Under the pieces are notes generated by a model. The model did not search any database. It was given only the letters and a program-made list of their open reading frames with translations, and had not been told where the DNA came from. The position numbers and the translations under genes are program-made. From the IMG/VR virus record IMGVR_UViG_3300030041_000010: a stretch of 64,000 nt of DNA, one strand, 5' to 3'. The stretch is from a virus. Positions 7,619-42,047 of this stretch are shown piece by piece. Numbering within the stretch: position 1 is the stretch's first letter; each line of letters opens with the position of its first letter.

Positions 7619-7694
7619 TGGTGTCGCCGATGGGAATCGAACCCACCATCATCTGATTGAAAGTCAGAGGTCCAGACCGATAGACGGCGGCGAC
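7619..7694 (-). tRNA. tRNA-Glu(TTC)
   Basis: Cloverleaf, loop CT-TTC-AA, GTTCGA T-loop, encoded CCA. Confidence 0.85.
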
Positions 7695-7748
7695 AAACTT
7701 AAATCCGGGTGCCTTACGTTGACTCCTCGATACACGAAACTCATAACT

Positions 7749-7863
7749 TGGTGCCGGGGTAGGTATCGAAGCCTACAAACTCACAAAACCCGTTCGCATA
7801 AACGGGCATACTTTGTGATGCCTATGGATGCCTCCAGCGAATCTACCAATTCTTCCACCCGGC
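7749..7863 (-). ncRNA. tRNA-like RNA with no canonical anticodon loop and a very long extra arm
   Basis: GCCGGG/CCCGGC-ACCA acceptor, Leu-like D-loop (GAATTGGTAGA), T-arm GTAGG-CTTCGATA-CCTAC; anticodon arm reduced to TGGA-GGCA-TCCA. Confidence 0.6.
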
Positions 7864-7869
7864 GTAGCT

Positions 7870-7945
7870 TGGTGCCCTCGGTAGGAATCGAACCTACGAC
7901 TTCTTCCGTGTGAAGGAAGCACTCGTACCGCTGAGTTACGAGGGC
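7870..7945 (-). tRNA. tRNA-Val(CAC)
   Basis: Cloverleaf, CTTCC-TTCACAC-GGAAG, CCA. Confidence 0.9.
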
Positions 7946-7956
7946 GAAACTTATTC

Positions 7957-8027
7957 TCAAGGAGGGGCATCGAACCCCCATCTCCGCCACGAACGGGCGG
8001 TGTCCTTACCGCTTGTCACTCCGACAT
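7957..8027 (-). pseudogene. degenerate tRNA, Glu-like (TTC)
   Basis: Anticodon stem CCGCC/GGCGG and T-arm GGGG-GTTCGATG-CCCC present; acceptor stem broken, no CCA; ends approximate. Confidence 0.45.
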
Positions 8028-8142
8028 CAGAGGCTATTACTAGCTTGGTGCTGACGGAACCCAGTTACATGCTGCTCAGTATATCGACAGCGGAGCAACA
8101 TTTACCCGTCATTGCTCTGCCATGTTAGACGACCTTGAAACT

Positions 8143-8217
8143 TGGTAGCCCTAGAGGGAGTCGAACCCTCATTCTCACCTTGAAAGGGTGCCTTCCTAGC
8201 CGTTAGAAGATAGGGCC
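8143..8217 (-). tRNA. tRNA-Glu(TTC)
   Basis: Cloverleaf, CACC-CTTTCAA-GGTG, CCA. Confidence 0.88.
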
Positions 8218-8222
8218 ATAAA

Positions 8223-8513
8223 CTACCACCGATTACTTGGACGCGGAGACGAGGATTTAACTCGTGTCTCAACCTTTGCAGGGTCGCGCCTGATTCGCCT
8301 CGGCCACTCCGCATTAAAAACTCTTGCTTCTGCTGGCACACAGGCCGCACAAAGGTGCTTTGCCTCGTGCTTGAAACTCTGTCCCGACCCCGTCTCGAAA
8401 ACTACAGTGAAGCCAATATCATCGAAGTGTGGGCACTCTGGTATACCTTCCAACTTGCAGAACTCCGATAGTTCATAAGCCATCACCATCGTGATCCTCA
8501 GGGTGGTAAGCAT
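8223..8513 (-). CDS. hypothetical Cys/His-containing protein; 3' end reads through tRNA-Cys
   Basis: ORF track; the C-terminal ~30 codons overlap the tRNA. Confidence 0.45.
   Translation of the reverse strand: MLTTLRITMVMAYELSEFCKLEGIPECPHFDDIGFTVVFETGSGQSFKHEAKHLCAACVPAEARVFNAEWPRRIRRDPAKVETRVKSSSPRPSNRW
8238..8313 (-). tRNA. tRNA-Cys(GCA), atypical T-loop
   Basis: Loop CT-GCA-AA, U73 discriminator, CCA; T-loop TTAAATC. Confidence 0.65.
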
Positions 8514-8650
8514 CCCACACTTTCAATACCGCAATCAAAACAAAAATACCAATCAAAACGAAAAAAGTTCCAACATCAACGTGCCCGGTGAAACCATACT
8601 CGGGAGTCCATGGTGCTTGCATAGTAGACCTCTACTATGCTTCTCATATT

Positions 8651-8725
8651 TGGTAGCCCTACGGGGTGTCGAACCCCGGTTGTCAGGTTGAGAACCTGCT
8701 TTCCTAACCGCTAGAAGATAGGGCC
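8651..8725 (-). tRNA. tRNA-Glu(CTC)
   Basis: Cloverleaf, CAGG-TTCTCAA-CCTG, CCA. Confidence 0.88.
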
Positions 8726-8736
8726 AAACTACAAAC

Positions 8737-8823
8737 TAGTGACGAGTGAAGGATTCGAACCTTCGTTCCCGCCCTTCGCATAAAGCTACTAAGCGAGTTT
8801 TTAGGCCACTAAAGTAACCCGTC
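8737..8823 (-). ncRNA. tRNA-like RNA with a 20-nt anticodon loop
   Basis: 7-bp acceptor GACGGGT/ACTCGTC, D-arm, stem CTCGC/GCGGG around a 20-nt loop, perfect T-arm GAAGG-TTCGAAT-CCTTC; ends ACTA. Confidence 0.6.
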
Positions 8824-8827
8824 AAAC

Positions 8828-8876
8828 TGGAGCCGAGGGGGCGTGGTTATCCGCCACGGGATTTCCCTTACTCGGC
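8828..8876 (-). ncRNA. 49-nt CCA-ended mini tRNA-like element
   Basis: GCCGAG/CTCGGC-TCCA closing two small hairpins (GGG-AAAT-CCC; GTGG-CGGATAA-CCAC). Confidence 0.4.
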
Positions 8877-9108
8877 ATAAACTCGATTAACTGCGTCCGT
8901 CTTCACTTTACTAGCCACCCGCCAAGGTCATGGTTGGGGAAGCAACTTTCGCTAGAGCTATCTTGGTGACCCCTACTCTTCCTTTCGGTACCATGGGTAT
9001 GGGTCAGAGCCCATAAATCACCGCAGCCTTCACAGCGTGACAAAGCGACTTGCCACTTACGCACTAAGATACACCGTGTTCTGTAATCACACTATGCACT
9101 GTGAAACT

Positions 9109-9131
9109 TGGTGGATGTGACAGGAGTCGAG
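9109..9131 (-). pseudogene. isolated tRNA 3' fragment
   Basis: CTCGACTCCTGTCACATCCACCA (T-loop remnant, acceptor 3' strand, CCA) directly after the stop of 9132..9344. Confidence 0.5.
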
Positions 9132-9344
9132 CTACACACCCAAAACCTCTTCTACCGCTTCATCAACGGTGGCGATGGCAATCACTTTGCCAGTTTCTGT
9201 CGTTCTCGGCCACCGTAGTTTACCTATGCATTCATCACCCTTATACACGCAGATACTGTACTTCCCGCTTCTCTCACCATCGTTCTCACATAGTGATAAA
9301 GTCGGGTCTTTCGAAATTGCAATTACTGCGTCAATAAAAGTCAT
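9132..9344 (-). CDS. hypothetical protein
   Basis: ORF track; ATGA overlap with the upstream ORF. Confidence 0.6.
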   Translation of the reverse strand: MTFIDAVIAISKDPTLSLCENDGERSGKYSICVYKGDECIGKLRWPRTTETGKVIAIATVDEAVEEVLGV

Positions 9345-9523
9345 TCACCCTCATCCACCAACTCAACCAAGAGTTGTATAGCTTCAATCTCGCGGTCTCC
9401 AACCTGTGAGACCTTACCTGTTACTGTGTCCGTGACCTTGAGCGGCCATTGCTTTGCCTTGATGTCGGCGATGCTGACAGTCGGACAGCTTACTAACGTG
9501 AACTCAGGTACACTATACTTCAT
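9341..9523 (-). CDS. hypothetical protein
   Basis: ORF track. Confidence 0.6.
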   Translation of the reverse strand: MKYSVPEFTLVSCPTVSIADIKAKQWPLKVTDTVTGKVSQVGDREIEAIQLLVELVDEGE

Positions 9524-9689
9524 TCAATCCACACTTCTCACAAAGGTCAGGGTCGTCTTCATCGCTGAGTGGTGCCTTACAACTCAAGCACCGCTTGTAT
9601 GTGTCGGGCTCTTCCAACCCCGCGTACCACGGACTGCAAATACATTCACCCACACAAACATCGTTTTCGCAAACCGCGTTGAACTTCAT
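9513..9689 (-). CDS. small Cys-rich putative zinc-binding protein (58 aa)
   Basis: Manual translation MKFNAVCENDVCVGECICSPWYAGLEEPDTYKRCLSCKAPLSDEDDPDLCEKCGLNEV; AGGAAGAG ribosome-binding site. Confidence 0.6.
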   Translation of the reverse strand: MKFNAVCENDVCVGECICSPWYAGLEEPDTYKRCLSCKAPLSDEDDPDLCEKCGLNEV

Positions 9690-9706
9690 CTCTTCCTAAC
9701 TATTCA

Positions 9707-9810
9707 TGCAACAGGTGGGATTCGAACCCACGGCGTCCATAACAATCCGCCAGCGATATAGGCCCTTAACCATGAGACGTGGAATGCTCTACCAACTGAG
9801 CTACCATTGC
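9707..9810 (-). ncRNA. tRNA-like RNA with a ~40-nt anticodon loop
   Basis: Canonical D-arm TAGCTCAGTTGGTAGAGC and T-arm GTGGG-TTCGAAT-CCCAC, acceptor GCAATGG/CTGTTGC; TCCA/TGGA encloses 40 nt; no encoded CCA. Confidence 0.65.
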
Positions 9811-9910
9811 ACAAACTTGGTGGACGCAGGGGACTTGGCACCCCATCGCTCGGCGTTACCACTATGGACGCCCACATTTCAATTCCTTAAGCCGAGTTCC
9901 GGACTTAACT

Positions 9911-9989
9911 TGGTGGAGCTATGGGGACTCGAACCCCACTGGATTCCTCATTGCGAATGAGGTGAACACCCCCGGCATTCCCTAGCCCC
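9911..9989 (-). tRNA. tRNA-Ala(CGC)
   Basis: G3:U70, CCTCA-TTCGCAA-TGAGG, CCA. Confidence 0.85.
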
Positions 9990-10071
9990 AAACTTTCGGG
10001 AGGAGAGGTTCTACGCATCTCACACGTTGAGAGCAAATCCCCTCTATCTCCCTGCATCTGTCAGACTGTCG

Positions 10072-10141
10072 TGTAGACACGGAGAGATTCGAACTCTCAT
10101 TTCCCCTCGATAGGGGCGTCCTACCATTAGACGACGAGCCT
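10072..10141 (-). pseudogene. tRNA-like gene (Asp/Glu-type body) with a shortened anticodon loop
   Basis: GTCGTCTAATGGTAGGAC D-arm, CCCC-TATCGA-GGGG (6-nt loop), T-arm GAGAG-TTCGAAT-CTCTC; abuts the endonuclease stop codon. Confidence 0.55.
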
Positions 10142-10749
10142 CAGCCCGACAAACCCTTAACCCAAACACTTACCGAACTCTTTGCAACCCCGAGTAAAGC
10201 TGCGATTTGGGCTTTACAAATTCCTTGTTCAAACAACTCCTGCGCTTTCATTCGTTCAACCGCTTTTATATTTCTCAACCTTGCGGCGGCGGAGCCTATC
10301 GCTGATAATCCTCTTTGCTTTGCCATCTCCGATGACCCACGAGCGCCACTACGATTGAAATTGTTGCGAATCATATCCCGATAGTTAGCGTCTGTCTTCC
10401 AACGCTCCGCGCTGTTAGTCCTATTGGCCGCTCGAACCCTCCACCCTTGGTTGGGTTGCTGATTTATCCAGTCGAAGCCACCACTCCCACCTTGTCTCAG
10501 GTTGTAGCACAAAGGGTCGGCTCGATACGTTTCAATCAGTTCGTATTCTTTAGCAAATGCCTCCCCTGAGTTGTCGAAGATGAAGCACACGTTCTTTATG
10601 AACGACTGCTCACCGTGCTTACGAATCGCCGCCTTCAGAACCTTACCTGACCCAAGGTACCCGTCGTACGGGTTCTTGGTTTTGTGGACGCCGAAGTAAT
10701 ACTTTCCGTTCACCAAATTCTGTGTTCGATACACTGTGTAAAATATCAT
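10141..10749 (-). CDS. GIY-YIG (Seg-like) homing endonuclease with C-terminal HTH
   Basis: TVYRTQNLVNGKYYFGVH...YLGSG...E...YNLRQGG; C-terminal KAQIAALLGVAKSSVSVW helix-turn-helix. Confidence 0.88.
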   Translation of the reverse strand: MIFYTVYRTQNLVNGKYYFGVHKTKNPYDGYLGSGKVLKAAIRKHGEQSFIKNVCFIFDNSGEAFAKEYELIETYRADPLCYNLRQGGSGGFDWINQQPNQGWRVRAANRTNSAERWKTDANYRDMIRNNFNRSGARGSSEMAKQRGLSAIGSAAARLRNIKAVERMKAQELFEQGICKAQIAALLGVAKSSVSVWVKGLSG

Positions 10750-10815
10750 GAACCTATCAGCCTCTCAGGTTTCTGAGGACTTAACCTCTACTAAAGAGGT
10801 TGATAGTCACGAATG

Positions 10816-10888
10816 TGCGCCTTGTAGGAATCGAACCTACGGTCCCTTCCATGTCAAGGAAGTGCTCTAGCCGCTGAGCCAAAGGCGC
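10816..10888 (-). tRNA. tRNA-Val(GAC)
   Basis: Cloverleaf, CTTCC-TTGACAT-GGAAG; CCA not encoded. Confidence 0.88.
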
Positions 10889-10962
10889 AAAACTAGTTAG
10901 CGGCTGCAAGCGCGTCCGTCCTGCATTTAATCCCTAAACCTGAGGGAACCACACTTTAAAGT

Positions 10963-11039
10963 TGGCGGGGACGACGGGGCTCGAACCCGCGACCTCTACC
11001 GTGACAGGGTAGCGTTCTAACCAACTGAACTACATCCCC
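10963..11039 (-). tRNA. tRNA-Asp(GTC)
   Basis: Canonical cloverleaf, G73, CCA. Confidence 0.95.
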
Positions 11040-11049
11040 AACTTCAAAC

Positions 11050-11124
11050 TGGCGGAGACGGCGAGGGTTGAACTCGTATATTCTTCCGTGACAGGGAAGC
11101 CCATTGCCATTATGGTACGTCTCC
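11050..11124 (-). tRNA. tRNA-Asp(GTC)
   Basis: CTTCC-CTGTCAC-GGAAG, G73, CCA. Confidence 0.82.
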
Positions 11125-11218
11125 TCAAGGGTGTGTTCCGCAGCTTTTAGTTCTCACTGCAAGCCCTAAGCCCGTGCGCCTTTGTGCGGTACGACGTTAG
11201 GTGCTACCCTTTGAAACT

Positions 11219-11294
11219 TGGCGGGGCTGATGGGACTCTAACCCACGATAGACGGCTCGACAAGCCGCTGCATTAGACGCTATGCTACAACCCC
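11219..11294 (-). tRNA. tRNA-Asp(GTC), atypical T-loop
   Basis: CGGC-TTGTCGA-GCCG, G73, CCA; T-loop TTAGAGT. Confidence 0.75.
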
Positions 11295-11295
11295 T

Positions 11296-11386
11296 TGGTG
11301 GACGTGTCGTGCCGCTTACGCTGTCATTTAACGACCGGGTACCTCATCTCTCTAATTACGAGTGTGCTGTTCAACTGCACACACCC
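11296..11386 (-). ncRNA. CCA-ended tRNA-like RNA with an Ala-type acceptor stem
   Basis: GGGTGTG/CACGTCC-ACCA with G3:U70; other arms non-canonical (enlarged T-position loop). Confidence 0.45.
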
Positions 11387-11488
11387 ATACGATTTGAGCT
11401 ACCACAACAGTGTCGTTCAGTAGAGCCATTTGGCTGGATTGTTCATACCCGAAGGGAACTCTCCGGCATCACATCCTCTACTAAAATT

Positions 11489-11563
11489 TGGTGGACCTAG
11501 AGGGGATTGAACCCTCGACTTCTTCCATGCCATGGAAGCACTCTCCCACTGAGTTACAGGCCC
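11489..11563 (-). tRNA. tRNA-Ala(GGC)
   Basis: G3:U70, CTTCC-ATGGCAT-GGAAG, CCA. Confidence 0.9.
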
Positions 11564-11571
11564 CTAAAACA

Positions 11572-11781
11572 TCAAAACCTTTTGCCACTGTTCAGCATAT
11601 TTATCCTTTCTAATACCGAGGGCTCCGTCAACAGCAGACGTAAATTCTCATTCGGCTGTGTTGGCCTTTCCAACATTGCAACAAACTCTTGCCACTGCTC
11701 AGGACTGAGGCGAATGTTGTTCTCTTCACCAGCCAGTCGGGTATGAACGCTTCTCATGTCGGCATCGAAGTTAATCTTCAT
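11572..11781 (-). CDS. orphan DUF1778 (TacA/AtaR-like) antitoxin C-terminal fragment, 69 aa
   Basis: IRLSPEQWQEFVAMLERPTQPNENLRLLL matches the DUF1778 C-terminal pattern I-x-L-S-x(3)-W/F-x(2)-F-x(3)-L-D/E-x-P-x(2)-PN-x(2)-L; AAAGGAGAG ribosome-binding site; no RHH N-terminus. Confidence 0.7.
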   Translation of the reverse strand: MKINFDADMRSVHTRLAGEENNIRLSPEQWQEFVAMLERPTQPNENLRLLLTEPSVLERINMLNSGKRF

Positions 11782-11797
11782 CGCTCTCCTTTCAAAT

Positions 11798-11873
11798 TGG
11801 AGGCGATGATGGGATTCGAACCCATGCATAACGGTTTTGCAGACCGCCGCGTTAACCACTTCGCCACATCGCC
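11798..11873 (-). tRNA. tRNA-Cys(GCA)
   Basis: Cloverleaf, CT-GCA-AA, U73, CCA. Confidence 0.92.
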
Positions 11874-11891
11874 TATAACACCAACAAAACT

Positions 11892-11965
11892 TGGAGCGGA
11901 TAGTCAGATTTGAACTGACGGTGACAGGGTGGAAGCCTGTTGCCTTACCGCTTGGCTATACCCGC
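11892..11965 (-). tRNA. tRNA-Gly(TCC)
   Basis: ACAGG-CTTCCAC-CCTGT, U73, CCA. Confidence 0.88.
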
Positions 11966-12191
11966 TTTGAATCAGAGATATTTTCGTACCTCCAGTGGTC
12001 CGAATCGGTAGCTCTCATATGAGCTACATCCCCACATAAGAGAACTGTTCAATCGGAAGGTCTTTCCAAAAGACCAACTCCGCCACCAGAAATAGTACCT
12101 CCACATATCTCCTCAATTTCTCGACGCCTCTCCGCCGTGCCACACCACTTTAGTCCGCAGGACTCGGTAGGTGTCACCCCGCTTAAAACTC

Positions 12192-12587
12192 TGCACTAGA
12201 CTTATAGCCGGAGTTCTGTCCAGAGGGTTACCCCTCCTGTACAATCATTCGTCTCGGCCAGCCGTTACCGTCTGGCTCTAGCCCCCAACCCGCCGATTCA
12301 TAACGGTACGAGCAGTACCTGTCGGCCTATTTGAGGTTGCACCGCGTAGAGATTGCCCGTTTCACCCGAATTTAATCGGCTCGTCTCTGTTGCTCTAATC
12401 GTCACACTCAACATCGGACGGGTTGTTCCCATAGGGTTGGTGGAAATCAACCAGACGTATAGCTGCGTCCCCTTACGCTACGTCCCCGAACAAGTGTGCT
12501 AGGGTGTTACCCTATACGCTGCTCTGTGGTGCTCCGAACTTCCTCGAAGTGGTATTGCGCCACGTCGCGATTGTCCAGTCTAGTGCA
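12192..12587 (-). ncRNA. rnpB: RNase P RNA, bacterial type A-like
   Basis: P1 TGCACTAGACT/AGTCTAGTGCA; CR-I GAGGAAGTTCGGAG; CR-II GCAACAGAGA; CR-III GGGTGAAACGG; P15 GGTAAC loop; CR-IV AGACGAATG; CR-V ACAGAACTCCGGCTATA. Confidence 0.92.
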
Positions 12588-12614
12588 TACTTAATGAAAC
12601 CGAGGCCGAAGCTG

Positions 12615-12959
12615 TTACTGTACTGCCGACGTGCGCTGTACTGCCACGCTACGAAGGTAAGCACGCATCTCGTCCGAGAACTCATTGAACATCTCACCCT
12701 TATCCAACCAGTGCAAAATGGTCTCCCAGTTCTCTTCCTCAGGCGTCCACTGACCCTCCAAGCCGTAGCAAGAGCAGTGACCGCCACTTACTGAGAACAG
12801 CTTCCCGTCCTTCTCGAACAGAACGAATGCCGAACCCGAATAGTCCTCGTAGCTATACACCGCTGCGTAGACCAACGCATCCTTCAATTCATCCTGACCA
12901 ATATTGAACTGGTCGCATACATCCTCAACGCTGCCGAACCTATCTACAAATACTTCCAT
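12615..12959 (-). CDS. phage hypothetical protein
   Basis: ATG at 12959 after AAGGAG; YSYEDYSGSA...GGHCSCYGLEGQW motif. Confidence 0.75.
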   Translation of the reverse strand: MEVFVDRFGSVEDVCDQFNIGQDELKDALVYAAVYSYEDYSGSAFVLFEKDGKLFSVSGGHCSCYGLEGQWTPEEENWETILHWLDKGEMFNEFSDEMRAYLRSVAVQRTSAVQ

Positions 12960-13028
12960 CGTTTTCTCCTTGTGGTACAAACCATCGAGAGAAACGGTGA
13001 GGTAATTGTTCGACCTCGGTTTCAAATT

Positions 13029-13107
13029 TGGTGGACCGTCAGAGATTTGAACTCTGCTGATATTCTGTGTGCAAGACAGATAAACACTCCTAGCATTTCC
13101 ACGGCCC
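13029..13107 (-). tRNA. tRNA-Ala(TGC)
   Basis: G3:U70, TCTGT-CTTGCAC-ACAGA, CCA. Confidence 0.85.
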
Positions 13108-13156
13108 AATATTGTCAAACATCATGTAATCACCGGCTGGCCGGGATTAAAAATCT

Positions 13157-13243
13157 TGGTGGCTTTGGCTCACGCCGGGGCACCACCCGCGCCCCTCGAA
13201 GTAAACTTACCCAGTCTTGTGGACTGGAGTCTTGCTCCAGAGC
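13157..13243 (-). ncRNA. CCA-ended cloverleaf-like RNA lacking tRNA loop consensus
   Basis: Imperfect terminal stem GCTCTGG/CCAAAGC followed by CACCA; hairpins GGAG/CTCC, CAGTC/GACTG and GGGGCGC/GTGCCCC. Confidence 0.4.
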
Positions 13244-13244
13244 T

Positions 13245-13319
13245 TGGAGCGGCTGGTGGGATTCGAACCCACGACCTCTTCCTTGGCAAGGAAGCGTTCT
13301 ACCACTGAACTACAGCCGC
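13245..13319 (-). tRNA. tRNA-Gly(GCC)
   Basis: Canonical cloverleaf, U73, CCA. Confidence 0.95.
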
Positions 13320-13349
13320 ATATACTTCAATACTGCAAAAACCAAAACT

Positions 13350-13425
13350 TGGTGCTCCAAGTGGGACTCGAACCCACGATAGTCTGCTTGTAGGGCAGAT
13401 GATTTAGCCGCTAATCTACCGGAGC
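13350..13425 (-). tRNA. tRNA-Val(TAC), C at position 33
   Basis: TCTGC-CCTACAA-GCAGA, A73, CCA; first gene after the attenuator. Confidence 0.8.
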
Positions 13426-13437
13426 AATCTTTACTGC

Positions 13438-13470
13438 AAAAACGAAAGGCCAGCCTTTTCGGCTGGCCTC
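13438..13470 (-). terminator. intrinsic terminator of the leader (attenuator)
   Basis: GAGGCCAGCC-GAAAA-GGCTGGCCTT followed by TCGTTTTT, 12 nt before the first tRNA. Confidence 0.88.
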
Positions 13471-13518
13471 GGTTTCGATTTCAGACTGGTTAGTTAGTCT
13501 TAATCTCTCCCGAGGCCA
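13464..13518 (-). promoter_or_regulatory. antiterminator hairpin, mutually exclusive with the terminator
   Basis: TGGCCTCGG (13518-13510, inside the leader ORF) pairs with CCGAGGCCA (13472-13464, the terminator 5' arm); inner helices GATT/AATC and AGACT/AGTCT. Confidence 0.8.
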
Positions 13519-13633
13519 TGGTATCCTCTCCCGCGCAACCGGCTTCAGCGGCTGCGACAGCTACGACTACGCCCACGACGCCAGTGTTCGGTGCGTCCAT
13601 GGTGTTAATCGAAATGTTGGTACGGATAGTCAT
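13490..13633 (-). CDS. attenuator leader peptide (47 aa) of the tRNA operon
   Basis: AGAAGGA ribosome-binding site; MTIRTNISINTMDAPNTGVVGVVVAVAAAEAGCAGEDTMASGEIKTN; codons 18-37 are 19 GNN plus TGC. Confidence 0.8.
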   Translation of the reverse strand: MTIRTNISINTMDAPNTGVVGVVVAVAAAEAGCAGEDTMASGEIKTN

Positions 13634-13653
13634 GGTGTTTGTCCTTCTGTTAC

Positions 13654-13683
13654 ATAATACGCAGAAAGTTGAAATTTGTGCAA
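13654..13683 (-). promoter_or_regulatory. sigma70-like promoter of the leader/tRNA operon
   Basis: TTGCAC-N18-TATTAT with an A-rich UP-like tract upstream. Confidence 0.72.
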
Positions 13684-13724
13684 GCTGTTTTTCATTTATT
13701 TTCACAGCTTATGTTTCAACCCAC

Positions 13725-14030
13725 GCACCTGTACAAGGTGAAATTCCTCGGTGTGCTGCCTGTGTTGCACCACCCAAACTCGGCTTGACGTTAGTCTGGA
13801 ACCGGACCATCGAACCCGGTATCTCCGAGGAACCCATAAACTGAGAGTACCACCACCCCGTTGTGGAAATCAACCCCCATGTGCCTTACGATAACCATCG
13901 GCTATCGAATTCAACAATGAAATGGATTGGCCTTTTGTCTCCACTTTCACTTTCCGGGTTCGAGGTTCCCGCCTGCAAACGATACTTCACCCTCGAATAC
14001 CCCGCCAGTTGCTTCCCAAGAAGTATCACC
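13725..14030 (-). ncRNA. candidate structured non-coding RNA (strand and ends uncertain)
   Basis: Many perfect complementary blocks, including crossing 10-bp and 8-bp helices; no convincing ORF. Confidence 0.45.
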
Positions 14031-14201
14031 TCATTCATAATACACAATTCAGAGGTGCTAACACAACCAAATTTGAAAACTCCCGAGGGAGGGACGGTTC
14101 AGTCAGGTTTATCTGTGCCGTCCAATCCTTCCCGAAACCCTTGCGGGTTTGCGTACCTGACGAATTAAATCCATAGTACACCAACGAGGAAGAAACCGCA
14201 A

Positions 14202-14525
14202 CTACCTGCCATTTTTGATGACGTTTATCCATCCCTGTGTTTGCTCACTTACAGTAGGTGTGGGTTTTACCGTCTTGCGGGTTCGAGGCTTGGAAGTCTC
14301 GAACCGCTCGGTCTCCGCAGCGTACCGCACTAGAGCTTGCCGCAGATTCATAGCAGCCTCGTAACCCTCCAGTGCAGACTCACAGCCTTGGCACCGCCCT
14401 ATAATGGCACCACGGCCATGTGCAGGGTTGTAGCGTGGGTGCTTGGGACACCGCAGTGTCAGTTTGCTCTTGGATACAGTCTTCAGCCGCAGCTTGGTGG
14501 CGTCGTCAAAGCAGAACTTCAACAT
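14202..14525 (-). CDS. hypothetical protein (CPKH...CQGC putative zinc site)
   Basis: ORF track; CAGGAG ribosome-binding site. Confidence 0.65.
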   Translation of the reverse strand: MLKFCFDDATKLRLKTVSKSKLTLRCPKHPRYNPAHGRGAIIGRCQGCESALEGYEAAMNLRQALVRYAAETERFETSKPRTRKTVKPTPTVSEQTQGWINVIKNGR

Positions 14526-41970: not shown

Positions 41971-42047
41971 TGGTCCCCATCGTGGGATTCGAACCCACAC
42001 TGAGCGGATTTTAAGTCCGGTTCCTCTGCCAGTTGGGATACATGGGG
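41971..42047 (-). tRNA. tRNA-Leu(TAA) with a short variable loop
   Basis: CGGA-CTTAAAA-TCCG, T-arm GTGGG-TTCGAAT-CCCAC, A73, CCA. Confidence 0.82.

Follow-up and report, generated by a model that had tools for sequence, protein, structure and literature searches.

Known leader-peptide attenuators include the multivalent thr and ilvGMEDA leaders and the pheST leader. According to the available text on the Salmonella his leader (PMC4046918) and the Pseudomonas aeruginosa trpL leader (PMC13434334), such systems combine a short translated leader carrying control codons with alternative antiterminator and terminator structures, and respond both to starvation and to tRNA defects. A ribosome stalled in the control region of the his leader leads to read-through whatever the codon, and an untranslated his leader terminates by default via an upstream protector hairpin (PMC4046918), while a defect in tRNA modification opens trp attenuators (PMC13434334). 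Here, we describe a unit with the same elements, and with read-through on stalling predicted, in a 64,000-nucleotide (nt) stretch of DNA from IMG/VR virus record IMGVR_UViG_3300030041_000010 (the whole stretch is referred to as the window), which is part of a large phage according to an open reading frame (ORF) profile search. The unit lies on the minus strand and precedes an array of tRNA genes. Judging from its sequence and predicted folding, we put the probability at roughly 0.8 that it is a ribosome-coupled attenuator, which would let the Gly/Val/Ala/Asp/Glu/Cys tRNA block and an RNase P RNA be transcribed when the ribosome is slow at codons for these six amino acids.

The unit differs from the known leader attenuators in several respects. 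Its output would be tRNAs and RNase P RNA rather than biosynthetic enzymes or a synthetase, six amino acids would be sensed together, and it is found in a phage, as one of several parallel units. It has no sequence kinship with the leaders in Rfam, and termination as the default of the untranslated state was not consistently predicted. It likely works like a multivalent leader-peptide attenuator outside the described leader families, that is, by a known mechanism with a new target. The trn operon (L-array) of Anabaena PCC 7120 is also a long accessory array, lies near a homing endonuclease and stays low or silent unless translation is impaired; there, however, a protein repressor, TrcR, acts at the promoter according to the available text (PMC8421152, PMC10272220), whereas the control predicted here would act in cis, after initiation, and be specific to the amino acids of the array. 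Neither attenuation nor a leader is mentioned in the available text of PMC8421152. T-box riboswitches likewise set a terminator/antiterminator choice by the state of a specific tRNA, but, as described in the available text, they bind the tRNA directly, need no translation and control amino-acid genes (PMC11404447); an Rfam scan of the window gave no T-box at gathering thresholds and no known leader family. Work on phage tRNAs and tRNA-cleaving defences (PMC10264068; the PARIS, retron, OLD and Schlafen work) shares with our reading the reason for having replacement tRNAs, but in its available text it concerns tRNA content and nuclease resistance, with no sensor that switches on tRNA genes. The nearest cultured relative of the window phage is Tunturi_5, a 309-kb Tunturiibacter phage (protein identity only 25–32%); its paper reports 43 tRNAs, and neither “attenuat” nor “leader” occurs in the available text. 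A literature search over titles and the starts of abstracts, with most subscription papers outside it, found no description of leader-peptide attenuation of tRNA genes, in agreement with the first-pass annotation of this DNA, which had known of no such attenuator on a phage tRNA array.

The unit and the array comprise the following features:

13654..13683, minus strand: sigma-70-type promoter-like site, TTGCAC-N18-TATTAT, at the same position and with the same spacing in two homologous phages (G002 and G006, see below)

13642..13647, minus strand: Shine-Dalgarno-like GAAGGA, 8 nt 5' of the leader ATG, with purine-rich sites at the equivalent spot in the homologs

13490..13633, minus strand: leader ORF of 47 codons, with in-frame homologs of 38 codons in G002 and 42 codons in G006

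13523..13582, minus strand: control run, codons 18–37, consisting of 19 GNN codons and one TGC, all for array amino acids (G at codon positions 1/2/3 = 19/5/3)

13510..13518, minus strand: 5' strand of the antiterminator (codons 39–42), with a 9-bp pairing to 13472–13464 predicted by folding

13438..13470, minus strand: intrinsic terminator-like hairpin from a sequence scan, with 10 pairs, a GAAAA loop, a stem at 13470–13446 and a U-rich tail to 13438

7619..13425, minus strand: tRNA array, with 17 genes called by ARAGORN and degenerate tRNA-like stretches (ARAGORN, Rfam)

12189..12586, minus strand: bacterial RNase P class A RNA, inside the array (Rfam RF00010, 162.5 bits)

The first tRNA gene, tRNA-Val(TAC), begins at 13425, 12 nt past the terminator tail. 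The terminator 5' arm overlaps the antiterminator 3' strand, so that the two pairings are predicted to be mutually exclusive; inner antiterminator helices are predicted between 13505–13496 and 13487–13477. On re-checking, the coordinates that the first-pass annotation had given for the promoter, ribosome-binding site, ORF, antiterminator, terminator and first tRNA were all exact, and codons 18–37 read as it had quoted them. Taken singly, some of these elements are commonplace: the promoter-like site is a 9/12 match, of a kind no more frequent here than in shuffles (7 found, 7.4 expected), and terminator-like matches are as common in shuffles as in the region. The evidence lies in the combination and in its conservation.

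The control run stands out from the rest of the window. With 19 of 20 codons starting with G, it has the top score among all stop-free 20-codon segments in the six frames. All 20 codons fall in the amino-acid set of the array, against a background of 0.33, while the best other segment reached 16/20 (17,847 segments in 61 ORFs of the window). The binomial chance of 20/20 over 28 start positions is 8e-9.

Two other phages with homologs of the window array were found, G002 (locus L001) and G006 (locus L045). Both have the same six-amino-acid array with an RNase P RNA, and the leader is in the same position. Across the three leader regions, mean column identity is 69%, and the order of the codons differs, but none of the leaders has lost any of the six amino acids or 12 anticodon classes. 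Each also keeps a single TGC. Compared with the window, G002 and G006 share a two-sided change in the terminator stem. Their antiterminator cores, with a single mismatch in G002 and a single G-U pair in G006, show no change of this kind, since the 3' strand doubles as a terminator arm.

Leaders with other codon contents were found upstream of other arrays in the same and related phages. In the window phage (represented by G001), G002 and G006, a Tyr/Leu array lies behind a leader with a common Leu/Tyr-rich core, which in G002 contains all six Leu codons and both Tyr codons. The leader of a Ser unit in G007 contains all six Ser codons, and that of an Ile/Thr/Gln unit in G006 has a Thr run. Tunturi_5 has three tRNA arrays, each with its own leader fitting its own amino acids; one of these leaders is the annotated hypothetical ORF308. 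The leader compositions of arrays 1 and 3 were predicted in advance, once the array 2 leader was known, and both predictions held. Among the leaders there are at least seven distinct codon sets, each fitting its own array. Ten of 13 leaders scored best against the amino-acid set of their own array, and the three Leu/Tyr leaders scored best against a Leu/Cys/Tyr/Ser superset because of their Ser codons. With one leader per array type, the true pairing was the best of 40,320 permutations (26.0, with a runner-up of 25.1). These figures overstate the precision of the covariation, but not its direction, because the arrays were known when the leaders were picked and related phages do not count as independent. 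In the control parts, all array amino acids were present in 10 of 11 units, the exception being Tunturi_5 array 3, which has no Met. Three phages have both a Cys codon in the control run and tRNA-Cys in their GNN units, as does Tunturi_5 in its Leu/Ser/Tyr unit; the three Leu/Tyr leaders that precede arrays without tRNA-Cys have no Cys codon. The association is not absolute, since the leader of Tunturi_5 array 2 has one TGC without a tRNA-Cys.

For the folding predictions, the ribosome was modelled as covering 7 nt past the A-site codon, and edges at +4 and +10 were also tried. At equilibrium, the probability of the window terminator was 0.19–0.52 with the ribosome at codons 18–36, rising to 0.71 at codon 37 and to 1.00 from codon 38 on. 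The switch was predicted at codons 38, 31 and 35 in the window, G002 and G006, respectively, where the runs end at codons 37, 30 and 34. Shuffles of the window ORF tail never antiterminated as well (0/150 at equilibrium; 0/100 co-transcriptionally), and the equilibrium control gave 0/150 for G002 and for G006 as well. With edges from +4 to +10, the window switch fell at codons 37–39, a shift of one codon. The caveat in the first-pass annotation, that a ribosome stalled on the last codons could cover the antiterminator strand, is therefore right but small, touching only the last one or two codons (GAT at codon 37 and, if the footprint is longer, GAG as well). In a co-transcriptional model, in which the RNA was cut before the terminator 3' arm, the terminator 5' arm remained sequestered for the length of the run, and its release came at most two codons from the run's end in all 11 terminator-bearing units, and the shuffle control was strong (≤5/100) in eight of them. 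Folding under ribosome footprints thus predicts an antiterminator/terminator switch at the end of the run and, together with the homologs and the covariation with other arrays, backs the attenuator layout originally proposed.

In the mechanism that we propose, a ribosome held anywhere up to codon 36 would leave codons 39–42 free to capture the terminator 5' arm, resulting in read-through, while a ribosome past codon 38 and reaching the stop codon would cover the antiterminator strand, so that the terminator would form. The ribosome would slow down when working tRNA of the array families runs short, be it through cleavage by tRNases of the host, losses as the host is taken over or poor charging, and the resulting read-through would refill the pool. 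The tRNAs would then govern their own synthesis in a negative feedback loop, with the RNase P RNA co-transcribed for tRNA 5' maturation, and the phage would have its tRNA set distributed over several units of this kind, every one with a separate sensor. Because extra tRNA is no cure for amino-acid starvation, the loss of tRNA molecules would be the more useful trigger, and host tRNA-cleaving defences are a candidate for it.

Several observations weigh against this mechanism or limit it. The co-transcriptional shuffle control was weak in three of the 11 units (23, 45 and 40 of 100). At equilibrium, the terminator core won throughout in five of the 11 units, and several mid-run codons of G002 and G006 favored the terminator; a switch in these units would depend on folding kinetics. 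The predicted probability of the terminator on ribosome-free RNA varied from 0.07 in the window to 0.91 in G002 and 0.43 in G006. The ends of the control runs were set by eye, and that of Tunturi_5 array 2 was set after the folding results had been seen. The leaders of two Pro arrays have no U-tailed terminator, and the three Leu/Tyr leaders hold two to four Ser codons in their control part, while no tRNA-Ser was called in their arrays. The point about starvation also cuts both ways, as part of the expected response would be useless. Finally, the first-pass annotation had described the run as an anticodon-by-anticodon mirror of the array, and this fails in the homologs: GGG is missing from the leaders of G002 and G006 although their arrays encode tRNA-Gly(CCC), and GTG is present in both leaders although no tRNA-Val(CAC) was called. 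The joint absence of GGG and tRNA-Gly(CCC) is true of the window, but carries little weight (the probability of a window leader without GGG is 0.29) and is not kept in the homologs. Given the peptide, the probability of sampling all 12 anticodon classes is ≈0.09 for the window and 0.06–0.10 per leader. Distinct codons were above expectation in 11 of 13 leaders, but synonymous-codon diversity was not significant (Fisher combined P = 0.078 over eight types). Strict mirroring of isoacceptors was thus tried and is supported neither by the codons of the homologs nor by the diversity statistics. From the sequences, the match appears to operate at the level of amino-acid families, with at most weak tuning to single isoacceptors.

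The lack of covariation at the isoacceptor level would also suit a general sensor of translation speed, which would open on any slowing of the ribosome (by antibiotics, cold, starvation or host shut-off), with the codon match an inherited history of little use in regulation. The switch is predicted to open on any stall before codon 37. This includes stalls in the 16 codons that precede the run, and 14 of these codons specify amino acids outside the array set. According to the available text, general translational stress induces a tRNA array in a cyanobacterium (PMC8421152, PMC10272220). Such a sensor would need no array-specific codons, however, yet every type of array has its own, and the Cys codon tracks tRNA-Cys across units, apart from Tunturi_5 array 2. 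We consider this explanation unlikely.

A match at the amino-acid level could equally point to a sensor of amino-acid starvation, possibly derived from an ilv-type operon of a host, that times tRNA synthesis to nutrients rather than to tRNA loss. The Val/Ala-rich run presumably resembles that of ilv-type leaders, and, by the nature of the mechanism, starvation must open the switch as well. No Rfam leader family was matched, however, and a single captured leader cannot explain at least seven codon sets that each fit their own array. The ORFs scanned around the array included no gene for amino-acid biosynthesis, and starvation would, by the reasoning above, not be relieved by more tRNA. This makes a starvation sensor quite improbable.

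The Val-, Ala- and Gly-rich run might instead belong to a small hydrophobic protein whose ORF happens to be followed by an ordinary terminator, with the array fed by leak-through or by internal promoters. The RNA contigs from the array in four peat runs (see below) would also be expected from constitutive transcription. The peptide contains neither Leu nor Phe, however, the order of its residues is not conserved in the homologs, and the equivalent ORFs at other arrays are rich in Ser, in Thr or in Asp/Arg/Lys. None of the shuffles equalled the pairing of its ORF tail with the terminator arm, and from 13654 to 10398 the scan gave no further promoter-like site on the minus strand. We regard this explanation as very remote. 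That a short ORF, a hairpin and a tRNA array came together by chance, which the commonness of the single promoter-like and terminator-like matches and the firing of our detector at 3/4 positions in cyanophage S-PM2 (see below) might suggest, is refuted by the comparative evidence (a binomial chance of ≈8e-9, conservation in two more phages, a covariation P of 1/40,320 and two advance predictions borne out).

To return to the attenuator, its distribution was surveyed with an automated leader-plus-terminator detector. In this phage group, it fired at 10 of 51 tRNA positions, all of them array heads; it missed the Ile/Thr/Gln leader, which lies 650 nt upstream and out of its reach, and the Pro units, too. 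It fired at none of 26 tRNA positions in G003, G004, CcrBL9, DSS3_MAL1, DLP_6 and Forza, of which 13–18 kb each was covered, so that array heads may have been missed; in G003, there is a promoter-like site directly before a 32-gene array. One of the three positive positions in S-PM2 was looked at closely. It has an unannotated 34-codon ORF (L052:2374-2478, LN828717.1 ≈108824–108928), followed by a terminator and a Lys-to-Val tRNA block. Nineteen of its 22 early codons are for array amino acids (P 0.001–0.035), and the ORF tail can pair with the terminator arm, with the same release point in the co-transcriptional model, while equilibrium folding of this candidate gave no switch. The ORF is preceded by a TATAAATA motif, which we take to be a T4-type late promoter. 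The S-PM2 unit is a lead for the same design, but the detector results across phages indicate that the design is not universal among phage arrays.

Contigs matching the array were present in four peat RNA runs from four studies. Those of three runs include exact matches to parts of the RNase P region, and those of the fourth include a 201-base piece. There were 29, 28, 26 and 7 contigs on an 8-kb array stretch versus 18, 1, 1 and 0 on a 20-kb control; these runs had been found using this same stretch, and some of the array contigs are tRNA pieces of other organisms. No contigs covered 13408–14208, which includes the leader and promoter, but such a gap in contigs carries no weight. The data fit transcription of the array in peat, although contigs cannot show strand, ends, levels or regulation.

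The relatives were collected by several searches. G001 has no mismatches to the window in 10,001 bases and is the same phage, so that it extends the genome rather than providing an independent homolog. G006 and G007 are one phage and were counted once. None of 11 candidates from a helicase search of viral contigs gave a new homolog; of the RNase P pattern searches of viral contigs, one gave no matches and another only G002. The antiterminator pattern had two matches, G002 and a sequence without tRNAs that was dropped as chance. A metagenome scan gave one match, L009, which is the same sequence as G002. The Leu/Tyr leader pattern had no matches in genome contigs and 28 in viral contigs, comprising one from G002, five copies of the G006/G007 phage and 22 loci without tRNAs, which were discarded as chance. 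On the question of the host of the window phage, the distantly related Tunturi_5 infects a member of the Acidobacteriota, and a 19-base RNase P motif matched mostly Burkholderiales among the 80 loci listed out of 120, most of the matches aligning over only ≈80–90 bases. At G002 L001 ≈8930–9120, just upstream of the leader promoter, there are CRISPR-like repeats with spacer-sized gaps, one copy of which lies at ≈9760 inside the array. G006 has a tmRNA gene (L046:13375-13775) and, at 9324–9397 (minus strand), a lone tRNA with a CTA anticodon, possibly an amber suppressor.

The window array includes Val TAC/GAC/CAC, Gly GCC/TCC, Ala TGC/GGC/CGC/AGC, three Asp GTC, one Glu CTC, two Glu TTC and two Cys GCA, and 15 of the 17 tRNAs have an encoded CCA end. 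All 12 anticodons of the earlier annotation are thus present, to which ARAGORN adds a thirteenth, the degenerate tRNA-Ala(AGC), likewise reading a GNN codon. This gene (8823–8739, minus strand) has no CCA, nor has an Asp-like degenerate tRNA at 10141–10074 (minus strand), the loop of which can be read as ATC; both would carry A34 and read GNN codons. Rfam gave two weak tRNA-like matches in the array besides the 17 ARAGORN genes. Elsewhere in the window, a lone tRNA-Leu(TAA) at 42047–41920 (minus strand) has a truncated tRNA-like stretch with a TTT loop after it and neither a leader nor a terminator upstream. The RNase P RNA is present also in the G002 array and, by blastn, in the G006 array. 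Two further ORFs lie among the tRNA genes:

12615..12959, minus strand: 114-codon ORF inside the array (phrog_8792), in the same place in G002 (72% identical in L001)

10141..10749, minus strand: homing-endonuclease ORF (phrog_314, E 3e-30), directly 3' of tRNA-Val(GAC)

Homing-endonuclease-like ORFs with a similar flank stand directly 3' of different tRNAs in the window (10749–10141), at L013 ≈10320 and in the L045–L047 region of G006. Two short motifs recur around the units. GTTGATTTCC is found at 13874 in the window (minus strand), upstream of the leader promoter, at 12451 (minus strand) in the RNase P RNA and at L013:3602 (minus strand) in the leader region of a Pro unit. TTTGACAA or TTTGAAAA occurs shortly inside several arrays, past the leader (window 13119, minus strand; L001:9814; L045:3287; L047:2483; L006:19609 and 31814), and presumably resembles the boxA antitermination element of rRNA operons.

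The Pro arrays may be under a different kind of control. Their two ORFs are Pro-rich (3/21 and 6/20 codons). These leaders (L013:3714, minus strand; L047:6832, plus strand) start ≈6 nt past the −10 box, which gives them a leaderless appearance, and are followed by a conserved hairpin without a U-tract. In the Pro/Met tRNA unit of G001 (L013 ≈2710–2052, minus strand), an ORF that looks by eye like a release factor is interrupted by CTT-TAG behind a Shine-Dalgarno-like run, an arrangement that we take to resemble the +1 frameshift site of prfB.

Why phages carry tRNAs has been an open question for decades (PMC10264068), and the role of tRNAs in large phages is described as unknown (PMC13359090), as far as the available texts of these papers go. 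A sensor written in the codons of its own tRNAs would state what the phage monitors. Codon supply and replacement after destruction of host tRNA predict different conditions for read-through and can thus be told apart by experiment. This can be done now in a cultured pair, Tunturi_5 and Tunturiibacter, where the layout has gone unremarked. The unit would extend attenuation from the supply of amino acids to that of tRNA, and its leaders could act as compact reporters of tRNA depletion. More broadly, and at somewhat less than even odds in our estimation, large phages may have a modular, self-regulating tRNA supply, in which a ribosome-read sensor on each block detects the loss of a tRNA family, for example to anticodon nucleases, and releases replacements together with RNase P RNA. 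If so, this supply would amount to an inducible counter-defence combined with direct feedback of tRNA availability on tRNA transcription, and it would also be found in cultured phages such as Tunturi_5 and, possibly, cyanophage S-PM2.

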